Below the pieces are notes generated by a model. The model was given only the letters and a program-made list of their open reading frames with translations, ran no database searches and was not told the DNA's origin. From contig CAVQGX010000032.1 of NCBI GenBank assembly GCA_963712115.1, forward strand, positions 107,761 to 171,760: a DNA stretch of 64,000 bases, given 5' to 3'. Position numbers and translations under genes: made by a program. This document shows positions 7,378 through 50,164 of this stretch, piece by piece (positions within the stretch are counted from its first letter, which is position 1; each line of letters starts with the position of its first letter). Source of the stretch: an uncultured delta proteobacterium. Lineage in GTDB: Bacteria; Desulfobacterota; Syntrophobacteria; BM002.

Positions 7378-8421
7378 TTAGAGAGTTTCTTCCAACATTT
7401 TGCTCAAGAGTTTGGCAGTGTAGTCCACTAAAGGAATAATCCGAGAATAGTCCATTCTAGTCGGGCCAATCACGCCGAGAGTGCCCAGAATTTCATCGCC
7501 GCTCGCATAAGGAGAAGTAATAAAGCTCACACTTTCCATGTCCAGCAACTCACTTTCAGAGCCAATAAAAATGTTTACTCCCCCAGCCGACATACTTTTG
7601 TCCAAGAGATCTATTATCCTACTCTTTTCCTCAAAAGCATCAAAGATGCGCCTCATCTGCACAACGTCAGCAAATTCTGGATTATCCAGGAGATTGGTCC
7701 TGCCTTCTATGTAGATCTCGCTATCTTCTATGTTCTCCTGCAAAGCTTTCTGACTTAATTCCAAGGCCTTGGAGAGTAAGCGTTCAAATAGCACTTTTTC
7801 CTTTTTCATCTCGTCCAGAAGCCGCGCCTTAACTTGATGGAGAGTAAGATCCTGTAGCATATCATTGAGATAACGGCTGTACTTATCCAGCTCCTCCTGG
7901 GAAATATCTCCATCGATCTCGAAAATCGTGTTGTGCACGATCCCGGCCTGAGAAACCAGAATGGTCATGACCATCTTTGCCCTCAGACGGACGAACTCAA
8001 TCCGCTTGAACACCGTCAGAGATAGTCGAGGTGTCAAGACCACACCAGCCTGATTGGAAAAGGATGAAAGAACCTTGGAGGTTTCTTTTAGCAACCCCTC
8101 AACCCGAGCCACTCCGCCTTTATAGGATCTCCTGATCCTTTCTCGATCTGCGTTGCTGAGTTGTTTTATTTTTAGGATCGAGTCTATATAGACCCTGAGG
8201 CCGAGCTCGGTGGGAATCCTGCCAGCCGAAGTATGAGGTTGATAAAGCAGACCGAGTTCCTCAAGGTCTGCCATGACATTACGGATTGTTGCCGGGCTAA
8301 CGTTCAAGCCGTAGCGTTTAGCTATAGCTCTGGACCCCACCGGCACACCACCGTTTATGTACTCGAGGATAATTGCCTCAAGTACTCGTCGAGTTCTTTC
8401 TCCCCGCACTAATTGTTTCAT
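7378..8421 (-). CDS. hrcA: Heat-inducible transcription repressor HrcA
   Basis: PVGSR.I, SPATIRNVMADLEELGLL.QPHTSAGRIPT, GVIGPTRMDY. Confidence 0.98.
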   Translation of the reverse strand: MKQLVRGERTRRVLEAIILEYINGGVPVGSRAIAKRYGLNVSPATIRNVMADLEELGLLYQPHTSAGRIPTELGLRVYIDSILKIKQLSNADRERIRRSYKGGVARVEGLLKETSKVLSSFSNQAGVVLTPRLSLTVFKRIEFVRLRAKMVMTILVSQAGIVHNTIFEIDGDISQEELDKYSRYLNDMLQDLTLHQVKARLLDEMKKEKVLFERLLSKALELSQKALQENIEDSEIYIEGRTNLLDNPEFADVVQMRRIFDAFEEKSRIIDLLDKSMSAGGVNIFIGSESELLDMESVSFITSPYASGDEILGTLGVIGPTRMDYSRIIPLVDYTAKLLSKMLEETL

Positions 8422-8433
8422 GGCCGCTTTATA

Positions 8434-8460
8434 TTAGCACTCATGTCTAAGGAGTGCTAA
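8434..8460. promoter_or_regulatory. CIRCE element (HrcA operator)
   Basis: Perfect TTAGCACTC-N9-GAGTGCTAA, 12 bp upstream of the hrcA start. Confidence 0.97.
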
Positions 8461-8462
8461 GG

Positions 8463-8491
8463 AAATTAGCAATCGGTCGATCCTTTGTCAA
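8463..8491 (-). promoter_or_regulatory. Sigma-70 promoter of hrcA-grpE-dnaK
   Basis: Minus strand: TTGACA-N17-TAATTT immediately upstream of CIRCE. Confidence 0.75.
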
Positions 8492-8553
8492 GACTCAAAT
8501 AGTGCGCATCTGGGCAAATACATAAGGTTGAACTTAGTTTCTCCATTAGCCCC

Positions 8554-8593
8554 AAAAAAAAGACCGTCTGGACGGGGCCACATCCAGGCGGTC
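8554..8593 (-). terminator. Intrinsic terminator
   Basis: GACCGCCTGGAT-GTGGCCCC-GTCCAGACGGTC followed by T8. Confidence 0.85.
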
Positions 8594-8672
8594 GGAGAAA
8601 GGAGAAAAAGAGTTGAAGAGTCAAGAAGGCAGGGCTTTCATCATTATGTTAACCTTACCATCCTTACTCGTT
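8554..8672 (-). ncRNA. Candidate sigma-54-dependent small RNA (~120 nt, CU-rich seed, own terminator)
   Basis: Bounded by a -24/-12 promoter (8684-8699) and an intrinsic terminator (8554-8593). Contains CUCUUUUUCUCCUUUCUCC and only a 7-codon ORF. Confidence 0.55.
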
Positions 8673-8683
8673 TCTACAATGAT

Positions 8684-8699
8684 AGCAAATTCCTTGCCA
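8684..8699 (-). promoter_or_regulatory. Sigma-54 (-24/-12) promoter
   Basis: Minus strand TGGCAAGGAATTTGCT = GG-N10-GC with TTGC. Confidence 0.7.
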
Positions 8700-8795
8700 T
8701 TGCAACCCGTGGATTGCATATTTATATCATATTGAAAAAGCTAATATTTTTTTTACTACTATCTACAACTTTTTAAATTAACTACCTGTGGAATG

Positions 8796-8839
8796 CATAA
8801 TCAGGACATAATCCGGACATAATCCGGACATAATCCGGA
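8796..8839. repeat. 4 x 11-bp tandem repeat CATAATCCGGA (candidate enhancer/UAS)
   Basis: cataatcagga cataatccgga cataatccgga cataatccgga, abutting the regulator stop codon. Confidence 0.9.
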
Positions 8840-10285
8840 CTATTTGAGAACATATCGAGTGCTCCGACCTCCGCCAACTCTTGCCACTATCTCCATTTCC
8901 ACCAGCTGACTCAGATCACGTCGGGCATGGCGATCGGAAATTTGGTTGATTTGGATATAGTAGTCGTTGGTTATATAACCGTTTTTCCTTATGAAATTTA
9001 TTGCTTTGACTTGGCGTGAATTCAGACCAAGATAGGGGAGCAAATCCCCAGATCCGTTCAGCTCTGGTCCTTTCAGGGCTTCCTCCGATGGTATGTCAGT
9101 GATCCCTGGAAGTCTTTTCTGTAATAACTCTTCCGCTAAGTCCTGGGGCCGAATTTCGTTACCGTCGCAGAGAATTACTGCCCGTTCAATGACATTCTCT
9201 AGTTCGCGGACGTTACCTAACCAGTCATACTGGTAAAAATACTTAATTGCCTCATGGCTTACATTTTTTAATGGAAGCCCGTTGGCCTTGGCCACCTTTC
9301 TGAGAAAATGGTGAACCAAAAGTGGTATGTCATCACGCCGTTCTCTGAGGGGGGGAATGTTGATGTGGACAACCTTCAAACGATAATACAAATCCTCCCT
9401 GAAACGTCCGAGCTCCACCTCCCGCTTGAGATCACGGTTGGAAGCGGCTACCAAGCGAGCATCCACCTGCAAGGTCACAGTACCGCCCACACGCTCAAAT
9501 CTCATTTCCTGCAGAACCCTTAGTAACTTCACTTGCAGAGCAGGAGACATATCACCTACTTCGTCCAAGAATAAGGTTCCGTTATGAGCCAGCTCGAAAC
9601 GACCTTTTCGTCTAGTGACAGCCCCGGTAAATGCACCCCTCTCGTGGCCAAAAAGCTCGCTCTCCAGCAGCGTTTCAGGTAAAGCTGAACAGTTAACCGA
9701 AACAAACGGTTTATCACTCCTGGGGCTGTTGAAATGTATAGCCCTGGCGATAAGTTCCTTGCCTGTACCTGACTCTCCGGTGATCAGCACTGATGCCCGT
9801 GTTTGCGCTACCTTCTCAATAATCTCATACACCTGGCGCATGACCTTGCTTTTGCCCACAATGTTGCCGAACTTGAAGCGCTCCTGCAGTTCCTGGCTGA
9901 GCAAACGGTTCTCTTCCTTGAGCCGGTGCATCTCTAGGGCTTTACGGATGGTTAGTATCAGTTCTTCATTTTTGAAAGGCTTAGTAATGTAATCAAAAGC
10001 GCCCCGCTTCATAGCTTCCACAGCTTTTTCCACTGTGGCGTAGGCTGTCATCATGATCACAGGGATTTCCGGTTGAAGACCCCGCAATTGAACCAAAAAC
10101 TCCATCCCGTCCACACCTGGCATCCTCATGTCAGTTATGACCAGATCCAGGTCATGACTGGTTATAACCTCAAGAGCCTCACTGGCATTGTCACAGGTAA
10201 TCACCTCATAACCCGCGTCTGCCAAGAGTACCTCTAGAACCAGGAGATAATTCTTTTCGTCGTCAACGATGAGAATGGTTTCCAT
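8840..10285 (-). CDS. Sigma-54-dependent response regulator (REC-AAA+) with an atypical C-terminal winged helix
   Basis: ILIVDDE, DMRMPG, GESGTGKE, ESELFGHERGAFTGA, FREDLYYRL, W.GNVRELEN; C-terminus RQVKAI..I...GYIT...ARRDLSQLV....V..VGGGRSTRY. Confidence 0.93.
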   Translation of the reverse strand: METILIVDDEKNYLLVLEVLLADAGYEVITCDNASEALEVITSHDLDLVITDMRMPGVDGMEFLVQLRGLQPEIPVIMMTAYATVEKAVEAMKRGAFDYITKPFKNEELILTIRKALEMHRLKEENRLLSQELQERFKFGNIVGKSKVMRQVYEIIEKVAQTRASVLITGESGTGKELIARAIHFNSPRSDKPFVSVNCSALPETLLESELFGHERGAFTGAVTRRKGRFELAHNGTLFLDEVGDMSPALQVKLLRVLQEMRFERVGGTVTLQVDARLVAASNRDLKREVELGRFREDLYYRLKVVHINIPPLRERRDDIPLLVHHFLRKVAKANGLPLKNVSHEAIKYFYQYDWLGNVRELENVIERAVILCDGNEIRPQDLAEELLQKRLPGITDIPSEEALKGPELNGSGDLLPYLGLNSRQVKAINFIRKNGYITNDYYIQINQISDRHARRDLSQLVEMEIVARVGGGRSTRYVLK

Positions 10286-10475: not shown

Positions 10476-11936
10476 CTAATGTTCTGGGTTCACCGGCAAA
10501 GCAATGATAATAGCTGTTCCTTTGCTCTCTAACTGCGAGAGCTCTTCCGGGGGTGGACTCTTGATATCGACCGTGCCTCCGTGGCTTTCGATTATGTTTC
10601 GGACTATGGGAAGTCCTAACCCGGTTCCTGTCTTGCGGGTAGTGAAGAAGGGATCGAATATTTTCCCTATATTATTCCCAGAAATACCACAACCGGTGTC
10701 CACTATGATGACCTCAAGGAAATCCTCTCGGGGGTCCCGATACCGAGTTACTACCCGGATAGTGCCCCCATCGTCTAAAGCTTCCATGGCATTAACGAAG
10801 ATGTTCAGAAAGGCGCGATAGAGAAGATCGCCATCGGCGATGACTGGCCTGCCATTTTCGGCAAAGCGAAGTTCCACCCTTATGCCTCGTCGCTTGAGTT
10901 CAACCTCCAGGAACTTCAGGTTTCTTTCCAGAACCTCATCTACTCTGCATTCAGAGTAGTTCGGAGTGGTGGGACGGGCAAAATCCAGAAAATCAGTGAC
11001 GATCGAGTTGAGACGACTAGTCTCCTCCATAATTATTTCACCCAACTGTTTTTTGGGGTCATCCTCCTCCATTTTATGGTGTAGGAGTTGGGCGGTGGAA
11101 CCAATGATTCCAAGTGGATTCCGGATCTCATGGCTGATGCCAGCCACCATCTTACCTAAGACAGCCATCCTCTCAGCCTGATTAAGCTGATCCTCCAAGC
11201 GGCGCCTCTCTTCGGCTCTTTTAGCGATGATCCTTTCTCCCCTCTTTACAATGAAACGTAAGACGAAAAACAGAAGACTCATCACCCCCAGAAAACTCGC
11301 GATAATTATGTTCTGGAAACGGGTGATGGCTGCATAATCCTCAGAGATATCTTGGGTAATTTCGAACACCCCCAGAATACGGCCATGGCCCCGCCCCAGA
11401 GGTCTTTCCATGCGAAATGGGATGTAAGTCTTGAGCTGCCTTTGCTTCGCCACTACTCCCAACTCGAAACCAAGAAAGCTTCCACGAGAAATCAGCTGGG
11501 ATGAGGATTTGCCCTCCCGGGCCAACTTAAAATCGATTCCCCCCAACCCTGTGAGCCCAACTAAGGAACGATCGGTACTATAAGTAACCACCTCATTTAT
11601 ATCATAGACATCCACCCTGTATAGATTGAATCCGTGAATGGTGCTACTAACTACCTTGTCCATAAGATCATATTGTTTGGGGTTGGCAAGCTGTATCCGA
11701 CCGTATTTGAGCACCGTGGGCAGGACAAATTGGGTGAAAACTTGGTGGTTCAAGTTTGTGGCCACGAAGAGGGCGTATTGCTCGCTTTTTCTGAGAAGTT
11801 CGTTCTTGGCCCGTTGAGAGATGAAAATGGAGAGCAATAAGGTCGGGATGAAGATCACCACCAAACTGGTCAATGAAAAATACTTGACCAATCTAAAAGG
11901 CTTGATGCTTTCCCTGGCGTCCGCACCTAGCTGCAT
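10476..11936 (-). CDS. Membrane sensor histidine kinase, cognate to the downstream regulator
   Basis: Two TM segments, H-box SHEIRNPL, N-box NIFVNA, DTGCGI, FDPFFTT, GTGLGL. Confidence 0.95.
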   Translation of the reverse strand: MQLGADARESIKPFRLVKYFSLTSLVVIFIPTLLLSIFISQRAKNELLRKSEQYALFVATNLNHQVFTQFVLPTVLKYGRIQLANPKQYDLMDKVVSSTIHGFNLYRVDVYDINEVVTYSTDRSLVGLTGLGGIDFKLAREGKSSSQLISRGSFLGFELGVVAKQRQLKTYIPFRMERPLGRGHGRILGVFEITQDISEDYAAITRFQNIIIASFLGVMSLLFFVLRFIVKRGERIIAKRAEERRRLEDQLNQAERMAVLGKMVAGISHEIRNPLGIIGSTAQLLHHKMEEDDPKKQLGEIIMEETSRLNSIVTDFLDFARPTTPNYSECRVDEVLERNLKFLEVELKRRGIRVELRFAENGRPVIADGDLLYRAFLNIFVNAMEALDDGGTIRVVTRYRDPREDFLEVIIVDTGCGISGNNIGKIFDPFFTTRKTGTGLGLPIVRNIIESHGGTVDIKSPPPEELSQLESKGTAIIIALPVNPEH

Positions 11937-12008: not shown

Positions 12009-12941
12009 CTAAAAGCTCAAACGTAAGTGGAGCGCCAGTCGATCTTTCCCAGGTTCCATACCGAAAGAAAGCCGGTATTTTTCCTTGAGCTCCCGGCGAT
12101 ATTTACTTTCATCTTTCTGATTCTCTTCTCTGGCTGCTTGGGCTGCACTCCGAATTCCGCCTACATACCAGCCCAATTCGAAGAATACCAGGATTCCGCC
12201 AAGAACCGGGCTGTCATGTTCAAAGGCCAAAACTGCTCCGGCTATAAAAAGAGTGTTGAGTAAAAAAGATGAGGCAGCCTGTCCTGGGCGACCCGCATAA
12301 AGGTGGCCTGAACCTGGCAAAACCGCGGACAGTGCTCCTGCCATTACTGGAGACCTCTCCTTTTCTTCCGGCCGCTGGTGCAATGCTTGGCGAAGTGATC
12401 TTGCTCTGGGATAGTGTTTACTCTGTGGCTGGATCCGCTCAAGGGTTGCCATTGCTGACTTATATCTGCCGCTGTCGATCTGGAGCCACGCCAAGCTTAG
12501 GTACACGTTATCAAGTTCTGTATAGTCGGGATACCTCTCAATAAACTGCTTGGCCCAATAGATGGCCCTCGGGTAACGTTCCTGTTCCTCCCGGATCGCT
12601 ATCATTTCTAACAAGGCCTCAGGCCCAACCGGCTCTTCCGCCCTAGAATTGAATAATCTGATCAGGTAACTAAAAGCTTTATCACCCTTACCCTCCCGAC
12701 GATAGCACCTGCCAATTTGGAGTTTGGCCTGATCATTCCTGTCATCTTTTGGAAAGAGAAAGACAAAACGTTGGTACTCACTCGAGGCCCGGTAATAGTC
12801 TTGCTTGTCATACAGGTGATTTGCAAAGTCCCACAGACGATCCGCCCTTTCCTCAGCCGCGACTGGCTGGGCCAGTACCGTGAAGTGTAAAAGAAAAATC
12901 CAGCACCAGCCAAATCTGCCTAGTAATAGGGAGCGAACCAT
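12009..12941 (-). CDS. Exported TPR protein with C-terminal hydrophobic segments
   Basis: Signal peptide, BamD-like TPR helices, ALSAVLPGSGHLYAG followed by hydrophobic stretches. Confidence 0.7.
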   Translation of the reverse strand: MVRSLLLGRFGWCWIFLLHFTVLAQPVAAEERADRLWDFANHLYDKQDYYRASSEYQRFVFLFPKDDRNDQAKLQIGRCYRREGKGDKAFSYLIRLFNSRAEEPVGPEALLEMIAIREEQERYPRAIYWAKQFIERYPDYTELDNVYLSLAWLQIDSGRYKSAMATLERIQPQSKHYPRARSLRQALHQRPEEKERSPVMAGALSAVLPGSGHLYAGRPGQAASSFLLNTLFIAGAVLAFEHDSPVLGGILVFFELGWYVGGIRSAAQAAREENQKDESKYRRELKEKYRLSFGMEPGKDRLALHLRLSF

Positions 12942-30565: not shown

Positions 30566-30707
30566 CGTATTTTACTCGCTCTGTTATTTCTATTGGTGAA
30601 AAGTTTACATTTGCTTAAGCAAGAATTCTGCCAACCTCAGTCCTATTTCCTTCTTGTTCTGCTGGTTTTATATGGTAGAATCGTCACAGCTTAGAGGGAG
30701 GGTAAAA

Positions 30708-47947: not shown

Positions 47948-50164
47948 CTATTGTTTCCACATCTGTCCCACAAGAGCAAAGGTAATGGTAATCATGATCT
48001 GACCAACATCGTCCCGGGTGATATTAATTACGCCCCCATGTTTGTGAATCACCACCTTGGTCATGGGCAACTCCAGATCAGCTTCGCCCAGTTCCTCGGC
48101 CACAAAGGGATAGAAAAAGTGCTCCATATCATCGTCTGTCAGATGGAGTCCAGGATAGGCGAGTCGCACCACCGCTTTACCGTTTCTTGCAGTGGCAACC
48201 TTCAGGCTAGATCTTTCCGGCATGTGCTTGCAGACCTGGCGCAAAATTCTTTCCAGTGCGCGGCTCAAGTGGCCGCGGTCAGCAAGAATGAAAGGAAGCC
48301 TTTCATCCAGTTCTAACTCGACTTCGATCCCACGACTGTCAAACTTCTCCGAGGACTCGTTTATGGCTTCCTGCAAAAGCGCGTTCAAGTCCACCTCGGA
48401 AAATTCCAGGGGAACCGGCCGAATATAGGTTAGGATCATCTTGAGGATTTGCTCAAGCCTCCGGACCTCATGAACTATAATCTCAACCTTTTTTCTATGA
48501 GAATTGTCCTTGTCCATCTCTTGAAGCAACCTTCGGGCGAAGCCTCCAGCCGAGGTGAGAGGATTGCGGATCTCGTGTGCCAGCCTGGCAGAGACATTGC
48601 TTAAAGTCTTGAGCTCTTCGGTTTGGATGATCTGCTCTTGTAGCCGCTGCCTCTCACTCACGTCTACGATAATACCATCCACCGCCTGTACCCTGCCCTC
48701 CCTGTCGGTTAAGGGCATTGCATGGTTAAGCAGAAATAATTCCCGGCCGTCTCTGTGATTGCCTCGGTACTCGAGCAGAAATTCCCTACCCTCTGCAAGA
48801 CAACCTCTCAGTTGTTTGGCAAAGTTCTGTTTATCCTCCGGATGTGCAATCCTAGTCCAGAATTCCCTGTCTGCTATTACTTCTGTAGGTGTGTATCCCA
48901 GGATTTCCTCCACAACCCTGTTAACATAAACTGTAGTTCCATCTGGTTCAATACGATAGACAACCAGAGGGGCATTTTCCACCAGGGTCTCATATTTCTC
49001 TTTCTCTTCCACGAGCTCTTGTGTTCTCGCCTCTACTCTCTCTTCCAAGGTAATGCAGTATTCTTGAATCTCTTGCCTTGCCCTGTTGAGGGATTCGAGC
49101 ATGTCATTGAGAGAATCTGCCAGGATACCTATCTCATCCCGCACTGGCACAAAAATTCCCCGGACCCGTTCGCCCGCAGCTATCTCCCGCGCCGCCGCAA
49201 CTATGTCACGGACAGGGCGAAGAAAGACCGTCACCACCCAAACAATAATAATGGACGAGAACAGCAGGGCTGCCACCATAACAGCAAACATCTCGATTCT
49301 GTTTTCGGCCAACTCCGCAAGAGTGGCAGATCTGTCAACGCTGATTTCCACCACCCCGATACTATTCCCGTAAAAATCCTTCAATGGCCCTAGGAAAAGA
49401 GCCAGGCCAGGAGTATCGGGCGGGCTAATCAGTATTTCCGGATTCTGAGTTCGAAACACCCTGCCGCAAATCTCATCACTCGATATCGGTAAGCTTGCCG
49501 AGGAAGCCGTAAGTGTATAAAAACCAGTAGTCCCATGGATTTGAATGAGGAGGGCAAGATCCATGTCGTATCGGCGCTTGAGAGAATCCAGAAAAGGACG
49601 CTCTACCGAGTACCCGATCTCGAAGGTTCCGATAAATTTATCTTGATAGAACACTGGCACCACTCCCCTAACGCCGAATCCGGTAGAACCTCGTTCCAAC
49701 CCAGCAATTCCTTGGCCAGTCTCCTCCACTTTAGTAATTGTATGACGAAAGGATGCCATCGCCTCACCGGATTGATAGATCCGATGAAGTCGCAGAAAAG
49801 ACGTGGCTGGTTTAATGTGGAAGTGAAATTGTTTTACATCGAATTTCTCTTTCACAGCCTCGTATGAGGGCAACAACAGATCAATGAGTGCTTTAGTATC
49901 TCTCCGGGCAAACGCCTCTTGCACTGTCGGCGACTTGGCGACCAGGTAGGCCAGACTCAGCGCCGAACTCTTCCGATCCTCAATCTGGTCAGAAAAGGCC
50001 CGGAAATAATCATGCAGCTTTTTCTTTTCTTGGGACTCGATTAGCCTTTTCTGGTTATTCAAACCCAAAAGAATGAGTGAGGTAGTCCCTAAAAAGGAAA
50101 GAAACAGGAAAGGAATCAGCAGCTTCCACTTTAGGCTGATGTCATGGATGCTTCTTAGATTCAC
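47948..50164 (-). CDS. Cache-HAMP-PAS-HisKA sensor with a degenerate ATPase domain
   Basis: Cache-like FHFH...SFLRLH, HAMP DEIG.LA.S.N.M, PAS, H-box AHEIRNPL; N, G1 and G2 boxes degenerate. Confidence 0.88.
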   Translation of the reverse strand: MNLRSIHDISLKWKLLIPFLFLSFLGTTSLILLGLNNQKRLIESQEKKKLHDYFRAFSDQIEDRKSSALSLAYLVAKSPTVQEAFARRDTKALIDLLLPSYEAVKEKFDVKQFHFHIKPATSFLRLHRIYQSGEAMASFRHTITKVEETGQGIAGLERGSTGFGVRGVVPVFYQDKFIGTFEIGYSVERPFLDSLKRRYDMDLALLIQIHGTTGFYTLTASSASLPISSDEICGRVFRTQNPEILISPPDTPGLALFLGPLKDFYGNSIGVVEISVDRSATLAELAENRIEMFAVMVAALLFSSIIIVWVVTVFLRPVRDIVAAAREIAAGERVRGIFVPVRDEIGILADSLNDMLESLNRARQEIQEYCITLEERVEARTQELVEEKEKYETLVENAPLVVYRIEPDGTTVYVNRVVEEILGYTPTEVIADREFWTRIAHPEDKQNFAKQLRGCLAEGREFLLEYRGNHRDGRELFLLNHAMPLTDREGRVQAVDGIIVDVSERQRLQEQIIQTEELKTLSNVSARLAHEIRNPLTSAGGFARRLLQEMDKDNSHRKKVEIIVHEVRRLEQILKMILTYIRPVPLEFSEVDLNALLQEAINESSEKFDSRGIEVELELDERLPFILADRGHLSRALERILRQVCKHMPERSSLKVATARNGKAVVRLAYPGLHLTDDDMEHFFYPFVAEELGEADLELPMTKVVIHKHGGVINITRDDVGQIMITITFALVGQMWKQ

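Follow-up and report, generated by a model that had tools for sequence, protein, structure and literature searches.

A predicted sigma-54-dependent small RNA with an anti-Shine-Dalgarno seed, encoded beside an NtrC-type two-component system in the Syntrophobacteria

Introduction

Several bacterial regulatory systems combine a two-component or NtrC-type regulator with a small RNA (sRNA). In Vibrio, the NtrC-type regulator LuxO acts with Qrr1-5, several short sRNAs that depend on sigma-54 and on Hfq and have one seed in common. In the CbrA-CbrB-CrcZ system of Pseudomonas, the sigma-54-dependent sRNA gene lies directly downstream of the gene for the NtrC-type regulator, and the RNA sequesters protein by means of repeated A-rich motifs. 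MicF, which is placed under membrane-kinase control by EnvZ-OmpR (as are OmrA/B) and is sigma-70/OmpR-driven, forms a long imperfect duplex over the Shine-Dalgarno (SD) sequence of the major porin mRNA, ompF. Here we analyze a 64,000-nt stretch of DNA from an uncultured member of the Syntrophobacteria (the window; all coordinates are window positions, and the 4.9-Mb assembly to which it belongs is referred to as G000). It carries, on the minus strand and immediately downstream of the genes for a sensor kinase and an NtrC-type sigma-54 activator, a predicted sRNA of about 120 nt.

The closest described counterparts are known from Myxococcus and Desulfovibrio. The ~108-nt sRNA gene pxr of Myxococcus xanthus lies directly downstream of the sigma-54 response-regulator gene nla19/PxrR and has its own sigma-54 promoter; the Pxr RNA has a multi-stem-loop fold and paralogues in some genomes (PMC5568312). 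In D. vulgaris Hildenborough, DAP-chip and tiling arrays indicate that Dv_sRNA2, encoded downstream of the DVU0679 gene, is a target of that regulator (PMC3333781), and four non-coding RNAs (ncRNAs) downstream of genes for enhancer-binding proteins (EBPs), including DVU0653, fall within the sigma-54 regulome (PMC4641369). DVU0653 and DVU0679 have a Fis-type helix-turn-helix (HTH) and palindromic sites such as TGTCCGCNATCGCGGACA and CGTGCGNNNTCGCACG (PMC4641369, supplement). Control of porins by sRNAs is common (NcS25, PMC10117139).

The locus in the window resembles that of Pxr in having an sRNA gene with its own sigma-54 promoter directly downstream of a sigma-54 regulator gene. It differs in its seed and in the DeoR-like winged helix-turn-helix (wHTH) and direct-repeat enhancer found here (the negative Rfam result given below bears on Pxr only if Pxr has a model). 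With the DVU0679 and DVU0653 loci it shares the order of kinase, sigma-54 regulator and ncRNA just downstream, within the same phylum-level group; a wHTH and 11-bp direct repeats set it apart, the comparison being one of regulators and their sites. Because a Fis HTH goes with palindromes there and a wHTH with direct repeats here, the regulator is not an orthologue of DVU0679 or DVU0653 in its DNA-binding part.

The multi-copy state of related RNAs in sister families recalls Qrr, but there is no Hfq match in 41 genomes, the seed and targets are unrelated, and the window genome has a single copy with this enhancer. A predicted porin duplex that covers the SD is shared with MicF; unlike MicF, the RNA has a sigma-54/EBP promoter, the porin is DESULF_POR1-like and the target is one predicted here. 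The position of the gene and its predicted dependence on sigma-54 are those of CrcZ, whereas the RNA has one CU-rich seed suited to SD pairing. We found no publication joining Syntrophobacter, small RNA and sigma-54, and among the matches listed for the literature on Desulfovibrio porins and sigma54 small RNAs the RNA is not described. As judged from sequence comparison, it is a new sRNA family of an already described kind (Pxr, Qrr, CrcZ and the D. vulgaris sRNAs downstream of EBP genes).

A conserved RNA cassette downstream of the regulator gene

We consider it likely that 8554-8673 of the minus strand encodes a trans-acting sRNA of ~120 nt, that this RNA is the apparent single dedicated output of the adjoining two-component system, and that a porin mRNA is its best target candidate. 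Along the minus strand, the TAG stop codon of the regulator is followed by a repeat array, a GC-poor spacer, a -24/-12 element, ~105 nt of sequence, a terminator and hrcA (Table 1). The original prediction, made from the window sequence, had listed a 4x11-bp repeat (8796-8839), an AT-rich spacer, a -24/-12 element, about 120 nt with no substantial open reading frame (ORF), a strong terminator, an hrcA gene with its own sigma-70 promoter past the terminator and, adjoining the whole, a two-component system; each was found where it had been placed. Only its description of the CU tract as unstructured has to be amended: CUCUUCAACUCUUUUUCUCCUUUCUCC is unpaired in the predicted fold, and the 5' continuation of the tract, CCCUGCCUUCUUGACUC, is paired as the 3' arm of the 5' hairpin.

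Table 1. Features of the sRNA locus and the adjoining regulatory genes (window positions).
Feature	Position	Strand	Basis or detail
Predicted small RNA, ~118-120 nt	8554..8673	-	Covariance model R1, 138.7 bits, E 1e-31
Intrinsic terminator	8554..8593	-	13-pair GC-rich stem with GGCCCC-containing loop (8562-8593), eight U (8554-8561)
Seed region CCUUCUUGACUCUUCAACUCUUUUUCUCCUUUCUCC	8594..8629	-	Invariant columns in alignment A1; predicted duplexes; match to 16S tail
5' hairpin, 13 pairs	8617..8669	-	3' arm invariant, overlaps predicted pairing region
Predicted sigma-54 promoter TGGCAAGGAATTTGCT	8684..8699	-	GG 8697-8698, GC 8685-8686; predicted start A ~8673
Conserved AT-rich element TTTTTCAATATGATATAAATATG	8716..8738	-	Inside GC-poor spacer 8700-8795
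Putative enhancer (upstream activating sequence), four direct 11-bp repeats TCCGGATTATG	8796..8839	-	Tandem Repeats Finder; conservation; uniqueness; helix co-variation
NtrC-type response regulator, sigma-54 activator	8840..10285	-	Pfam REC, AAA+ with GAFTGA, AAA lid; C-terminal DeoR-like winged helix
Sensor histidine kinase	10476..11936	-	Pfam HisKA and HATPase_c; hydropathy

Full-length relatives of the regulator are present in all 41 sampled genomes of the class, and 30 of their loci were fetched. We refer to the window organism's own family as f1 and to its sister (second) family as f4; f2, f3, f5 and f6 are other families of the class. A cassette of repeats, sigma-54 promoter, hairpin, CU core and GGCCCC-loop terminator directly follows the regulator stop codon in 19 of the 30 loci. 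The regulators of these 19 loci are 62-100% identical, and the loci include all 17 f1 genomes among the 30 (G000 included; four genera) and one genome of the second family. The CU core CTCTTTTTCTCCTTT occurs in all 19, with one variant that lacks a T, and the ~105 nt between promoter and terminator are conserved above the flanking DNA. Among the other 11 loci, the regulators of which are ~60% identical, nine have nothing comparable within ~700 nt downstream; L023 and L026 extend just 109 and 7 nt past the gene and are too short to judge. The original prediction had made the sRNA depend on conservation of the promoter and the CU tract in relatives. Both are kept in 19 of the 30 regulator loci and, with the terminator, they stand behind orthologous regulators, which lends the prediction of an sRNA strong comparative support.

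The pattern TGGCA-N6-TTGCW, to which the promoter belongs, has three matches in the window versus 0.32 expected, and none of 100 shuffled sequences reached three. The relaxed form TGG[CT]A-N6-T[TA]GC[AT] occupies the same place in 19 of 19 loci, at a fixed distance to the hairpin. The genome encodes rpoN, and two Sigma54_DBD genes were identified in this assembly, for which contamination is 6%. The other two exact matches in the window lie at 30618-30633 (-) and 48586-48601 (+).

These data bear on the possibility that there is no independent gene, the hairpin just ending the regulator mRNA and the -24/-12 match being fortuitous. The element is directly 3' of the regulator ORF, as such an account would have it, but the fixed spacing of the promoter across 19 loci, the conservation of the ~105-nt stretch and the occurrence of related RNAs away from the regulator gene in other families (with the same promoter type in 25 of 30 first loci) make it extremely improbable.

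Folding from ~8673 gives the 5' hairpin, unpaired CUCUUCAACUCUUUUUCUCCUUUCUCC and the terminator (-41.2 kcal/mol, z -2.5). In the consensus fold, 95.8% of cells are paired and nine pairs show double changes, seven of them in the terminator; 0 of 500 column shuffles reached the observed pairing, and slid controls gave at most 3. Thus seven of the 13 pairs of helix 2 (the terminator) have changes on both sides, and a terminator scanner recovers its inner stem. Helix 1 (the 5' hairpin) is 95.7% paired, with double changes in two pairs. As this hairpin is mostly invariant, covariation says little about it.

No minus-strand ORF of at least 40 aa lies between promoter and terminator, and no ORF there is conserved; a 52-aa ORF at 8466-8624 begins within the RNA. 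The original prediction had offered a 7-codon ORF, MMKALPS, as an alternative product, and this part of it does not hold. An ATG-ATG...TGA frame is present at 8650-8627, and most members of the genus have a frame of the MK(A/T)LPS or MS(A/T)LPS type, as would be expected for a peptide gene or a dual-function RNA. However, L011 has ATC in place of the start codon, in L015 and L016 a TAG lies upstream and the frame is without a start, and L017-L019 do not have the frame at all. It has no conserved SD, its start lies in the hairpin loop, and the bases that are conserved are those of the hairpin 3' arm and the pairing region. A peptide product, with or without RNA function, is therefore hardly credible.

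The covariance model R1, built from the 19 locus RNAs, matches 18 of the 21 other f1 genomes and two of the three f4 genomes, with weak matches elsewhere. The three f1 genomes that it missed are 62%, 86% and 72% complete. A scan of public genomes with the window seed identified 93 places; among the 80 of these that were fetched, 11 are orthologues with promoter and terminator and one is of a paralogue type. These 12 are from metagenome-assembled genomes labelled Syntrophobacterales, Syntrophobacteria, Deltaproteobacteria, Desulfobacterales or Desulfobacteraceae. A search of Rfam 15 with 8000-9300 gave no meaningful match at E <=10 (the top one, YenS, reached 13.4 bits, where the gathering score is 80).

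The hrcA gene past the terminator is preceded by a promoter of the form TTGACA-17-TAATTT and a CIRCE inverted repeat (8434-8460), and is followed by grpE and dnaK. Within f1 it is the usual neighbour of the RNA, and the CIRCE element or hrcA start lies 58-300 nt past the RNA in 12 of 19 loci. This proximity, which counts against a free-standing sRNA, would fit a cis-acting sigma-54 leader or attenuator of hrcA-grpE-dnaK that feeds a second signal into this heat-shock operon, with the hairpin as a conditional terminator; one metatranscriptome contig also runs from 8825 into hrcA. We find this very improbable. The terminator is strong (13-bp stem, eight U) and its pairing is kept by compensatory changes, hrcA retains its own sigma-70 promoter and CIRCE, and the spacer between terminator and CIRCE is variable in length and non-homologous. 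Loci of the sister family have no CIRCE within 283 nt, related sRNA genes in three other families, judged from the first locus in each of 30 genomes, are not directly behind the regulator gene, nine readable regulator loci there have no such RNA, and a contig that covers two genes is not the same as a single transcript. We retain the trans-acting sRNA as the favoured interpretation. In one locus (L008, from G010), a long degenerate tandem array of GATTGTAGATT- and GGATTGCGGATTGT-like units lies directly past the sRNA terminator, where others have the hrcA promoter region.

The regulator and its repeat array

The regulator ORF encodes 481 aa and ends with a TAG codon at 8842-8840. Pfam identifies a receiver domain (Response_reg, E 6e-33) and a sigma-54 AAA+ domain (Sigma54_activat, E 1e-73), and the GAFTGA motif is present in the translation. 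This combination of REC and a GAFTGA-bearing sigma-54 AAA+ domain is that of the NtrC family (bacterial EBP group I). The Fis-type HTH expected at the C-terminus of that family was not identified (no match to Pfam HTH_8 in the regulator). In its place, HTH_DeoR matches the C-terminal 78 aa at 22.6 bits (cut-off 21) and DIP2311-like_C, at 26.2 bits, falls just under its cut-off of 27; on these matches we read the C-terminus as a winged helix. A sequence search of the PDB with this domain returned a sole match, to a leucine-rich repeat, which is spurious. A word-based search with the same domain found 69 proteins, all close relatives with at least 70% identity, and is uninformative on the spread of the wHTH-EBP architecture.

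Tandem Repeats Finder reports the array at 8796-8840 (period 11, 4.1 copies, 97% matches); the fourth unit is TCCTGATTATG. Three to five direct 11-bp units are present in 19 of 19 orthologous loci. The array starts at the base after the regulator stop codon in most loci and is inside an extended ORF in three. Measured from the centre of the array to the 5' end of the -24/-12 element, the distance is ~119 bp in the window and 103-140 bp in 17 of 19 loci, the variant loci L006 and L017 having ~207 bp. Single units with at most one mismatch occur 75 times in the 4.9-Mb assembly, and the tandem arrangement occurs only here.

The repeat unit co-varies with the predicted recognition helix of the regulator. 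In 17 loci a helix of the ISDRHARRDL type is paired with units of the TCCGGATTATG type, that is, (T/G)CCGGATTATG-type units, and in two loci a helix SVM(K/Q)TQAK(T/L)EL is paired with GACCGATTA units. The latter two are from different genera (G007, of the same genus as the window organism, and G018, of another), and the downstream RNA is the same in both groups. The original prediction took the array to be the enhancer of the adjoining activator. Co-variation of helix and repeat, the uniqueness of the array and its position after the stop codon all point that way, and we infer that the winged helix of the regulator binds the 11-bp repeats.

The spacer between array and promoter has a GC content of 0.22-0.25 across 8710-8799, versus 0.489 for the genome. 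It includes a TTTCAA-N4-5-ATAKAAAT-like motif that is seen in most orthologous loci, within the AT-rich element of Table 1, and this element could possibly be a bending or IHF site.

An anti-SD seed and the genome-wide target search

The CU tract had been described at the outset as complementary to ribosome-binding sites (RBSs), and the genome itself bears this out. Its segment CUCCUUUCU (8596-8604) reproduces exactly the final 9 nt of the 16S 3' tail in this genome (...CACCUCCUUUCU). Read as its reverse complement, the seed is a common, genuine RBS in other genomes: many chance matches of the public scan correspond, on the opposite strand, to real gene starts of the form AAAGGAGAAAAAGAG-ATG in other Desulfobacterota. 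For the target search we used 4857 crude gene starts of this genome. Contiguous complementarity of at least 11 nt to translation initiation regions (TIRs) was found for 28 genes with the real seed versus 7, 11, 8 and 3 with shuffled seeds. The identity to the 16S tail, the match to real RBSs and the excess of contiguous matches make the anti-SD reading sound.

Energy alone names no target. The top matches by energy or contiguous pairing (a pentapeptide-repeat protein with 15 nt, Metallophos_2, pirin, PilZ, Peripla_BP_6, DUF4197 and others) have no common function and were set aside. Hfq (PF17209) had no match in any of the 41 genomes of the class sample, this one included (24 are of high quality), and the same search was positive in five controls.

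Short-form relatives across the class

Through weak matches of R1 in a third family we identified a shorter predicted RNA, of ~65 nt, whose seed is AACTCTTTCCTCCTC. This 15-mer is present in 86 of 122 class genomes (74 of 81 in f6, seven of nine in f5 and five of six in f3) and in none of the 25 genomes of f1, f4 and f2; the reversed 15-mer, as a control, gave four matches. Details were taken from the first locus per genome, for 30 loci. A strict sigma-54 promoter lies 35-43 nt upstream of the seed in 25 of them, and in four others there is a near match. In 29 of 30 the seed is followed by a GCCCC-loop hairpin and a T-rich tail (the loop of L187 differs), and three to five direct ATGGCG(Y)GATT repeats lie ~100-150 bp upstream in 29 of 30 (L187 has none). 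The window unit ATGTCCGGATT is an ATGGCG(Y)GATT-type unit with a different core.

At the first locus of each of 30 genomes from three families, the short-form gene does not directly follow the regulator gene; nine regulator loci of these families were readable, and none has such an RNA downstream. There are up to five seed matches per genome, some of which are sigma-70-type sRNAs or a target site, and one contig of G116 carries three tandem sigma-54 copies. At L202, L203, L205, L207, L209 and L211 (G054-G057, sister family), an RNA with the AACTCTTTCCTCCTC seed has a sigma-70-like promoter and a different terminator hairpin. Since such RNAs carry the same seed, the AACTCTTTCCTCCTC seed is common to differently regulated RNAs. 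The sRNAs of seven related loci had no match in Rfam at E <=1. From these comparisons, the predicted window RNA is a local form of a widespread family, with an added 5' hairpin and an insertion-lengthened seed, and linked to the regulator gene.

Two further candidates with near-consensus sigma-54 promoters, TGGCACTGGGTTTGCAT and TGGCACTTTGTTTGCA, were noticed elsewhere in G000, at C44:14198-14299 (+) (L032) and on C11 from ~63141 (+). Both have a short hairpin, a CU-rich tract and a terminator, and PilZ-domain genes flank both. They are excluded as outputs of this regulator, having neither a TCCGGATTATG array nor an adjoining EBP gene. About 50 nt upstream of the C44 candidate, L032:1270-1447 (+) has a 6S RNA-like Rfam match (40.1 bits, E 4e-5) that is below the gathering score of 46.4.

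A porin as candidate target

One extra match to the 15-mer, in G111, is the start of a gene for a 680-aa protein, where GAGGAGGAAAGAGTT-ATG provides a perfect 15-nt complement. The protein has a signal peptide and a C-terminal Phe, and homologues are encoded in 79 of 122 genomes. These porin-like proteins match no Pfam family; they match the NCBIfam model DESULF_POR1 (outer membrane homotrimeric porin) with E 1e-19 to 4e-40, below its curated cut-off. The TIRs of the porin orthologues match the seed over at least 13 nt in 15 of 30 and over at least 10 nt in 25 of 30, and a second upstream GGAAAGAGT motif is present. The pattern GAGGAGGAAAGAG-N0-2-ATG occurs 64 times in 51 of 122 genomes versus one control match, and by coordinate comparison 31 of these are at porin-family starts.

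In f1 the predicted interaction is more extensive. The porin 5' untranslated region (UTR) GGAGAAUAAGAGUUCAAGACAAGGAGG can pair with the sRNA segment CCUUCUUGACUCUUCAACUCUUUUUCUCC through 24 Watson-Crick and 2 GU pairs over -37 to -10, SD included, a 26-bp duplex in this genome that would involve sRNA bases 8601-8629. All eight f1 genomes for which both sequences were available show such extended complementarity at the porin TIR, with 24-27 Watson-Crick and 2-4 GU pairs over -46/-32 to -4/-10. Shuffled UTRs reached the duplex score in 0 of 300 cases in six genomes and in 3 and 8 of 300 in the other two. The two partners also change together: in G020 the same base is missing from both and a C/C mismatch has become A-U, giving 29 uninterrupted pairs, and in G021 both have gained a matching CUAAGG/CCUUAG extension. 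Pairing with the porin UTR would account for the invariance of the 3' arm of the 5' hairpin. The porin TIR ranks fourth of 4857 in this genome by an alignment-type score.

Several observations weigh against a porin-directed sRNA. The alignment-type score was picked after the duplex had been seen; RNAduplex energy with a 41-nt seed places the porin no higher than 159th of 4857, and the RNAduplex energies of a 24-nt seed to TIRs are no better than those of shuffled CU-rich seeds. The 5' hairpin ties up half of the region that is predicted to pair. In this assembly, the frame of the porin homologue (C20:83479-84093, -) is open for ~204 aa versus 438-480 aa in relatives, possibly through a frameshift, a pseudogene or an assembly error. 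Nor is the GAGGAGGAAAGAG motif porin-specific, as HU and other genes share the perfect match: the 20 non-porin hits that were examined comprise 11 HU genes, two small lipoprotein-like genes, three sRNA genes read backwards and four others (OMP_b-brl, Phenol_MetA_deg, an asparagine synthase-like gene and an unnamed secreted-looking protein). It could be that the motif is no more than the strongest RBS used locally. HU was rejected as a target in this genome, where its TIR has no complement of the local seed. Finally, the RNA evidence consists only of low-depth contigs, from four metatranscriptome runs of three studies, with a depth of 0.5-12 across 8457-8830; one X3 contig spans 7896-8825, running on into hrcA, and one X2 contig starts at 8554. 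Being without ends, strand or level, these contigs speak neither for nor against expression, and the discrete transcript is predicted.

On balance, the porin mRNA is the best target candidate, as a prediction from complementarity rather than an established target. The HU genes (Bac_DNA_binding, 90 aa) that share the motif, at L272, L273, L275, L277, L279-L283, L285 and L286, have GAGGAGGAAAGAG-N1-ATG, a perfect 13-nt complement of the short-form seed.

Some of the same data could be explained if the RNA sequestered a protein or the ribosome, as a decoy for the 16S anti-SD or a sponge like CrcZ or CsrB. The 9-nt copy of the 16S tail, the lack of a target-specific energy signal over shuffled CU seeds, the lack of an Hfq match in 41 genomes and the class-wide perfect matches to a number of genes with high expression (those for the porin, HU and other outer-membrane proteins) are in keeping with this. 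However, sponges typically repeat their motifs and here there is one short motif, conservation extends beyond the anti-SD core (to AACUCUUU and UUCAAC), the sRNA and porin UTR show coordinated changes, and a pyrimidine tract would bind the SD of an mRNA, not the ribosome. Sequestration is thus improbable, and we prefer pairing with mRNA.

Proposed circuit and significance

We propose that the membrane kinase senses an extracytoplasmic signal and, as the domain families suggest, would phosphorylate the NtrC-type regulator. The DeoR-like winged helix of the regulator would then bind the four 11-bp direct repeats, which is suggested by their co-variation and uniqueness, and its AAA+ domain may activate sigma-54 polymerase at TGGCAAGGAATTTGCT across the AT-rich spacer. 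The predicted product, made up of a 5' hairpin, a pyrimidine-rich seed with the 9-nt anti-SD copy and a terminator (a structure with covariation support), would pair with ribosome-binding regions and block translation, probably without Hfq. The 5' UTR of the mRNA for the homologue of the Desulfovibrio homotrimeric porin would be the likeliest partner of the seed, and the window RNA would be the local form of a class-wide, sigma-54-dependent and often multi-copy sRNA family.

A broader scheme can be offered tentatively, although we regard it as rather doubtful. Across this apparently Hfq-less class, one conserved two-component system, with an NtrC-type activator that has a DeoR-like helix for the Fis HTH and acts at 11-bp repeats, might drive Qrr-like multi-copy sRNAs whose seeds are anti-SD copies extended into the spacer. 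An envelope signal might in this way silence the mRNAs with the strongest translation, namely those for the major porin, for further outer-membrane proteins and for HU.

The mechanism is not of a new kind, as EBP-driven sRNAs just downstream of an EBP gene are already described. What the locus adds is an RNA family outside Rfam in most genomes of the class (the 15-mer seed in 86 of 122, and the window form in 20 of 24 other f1 and f4 genomes), a class made up largely of uncultured relatives of sulfate reducers or syntrophs. A likely output is assigned to a conserved orphan two-component system, and a Desulfovibrio-type porin is offered as a concrete target. The predicted activator architecture, a sigma-54 AAA+ protein with a winged helix on helically phased direct repeats, is uncommon, and the co-variation of helix and repeat would serve as a ready natural specificity code. 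The system also makes a case for long-duplex anti-SD action by an sRNA in bacteria in which Hfq was not detected.

The sensor kinase and neighbouring genes

The kinase gene adjoins the regulator gene in 27 of 30 orthologous loci, and the pair is identified by Pfam as a two-component system. Hydrophobic segments of the kinase at about residues 16-43 and 206-233 flank a loop of ~165 aa, which is probably periplasmic. The gene directly upstream of that for the kinase, at 12009-12941 (-), encodes a TPR-repeat protein that has a signal-like segment at its N-terminus and may be an accessory to the sensor.

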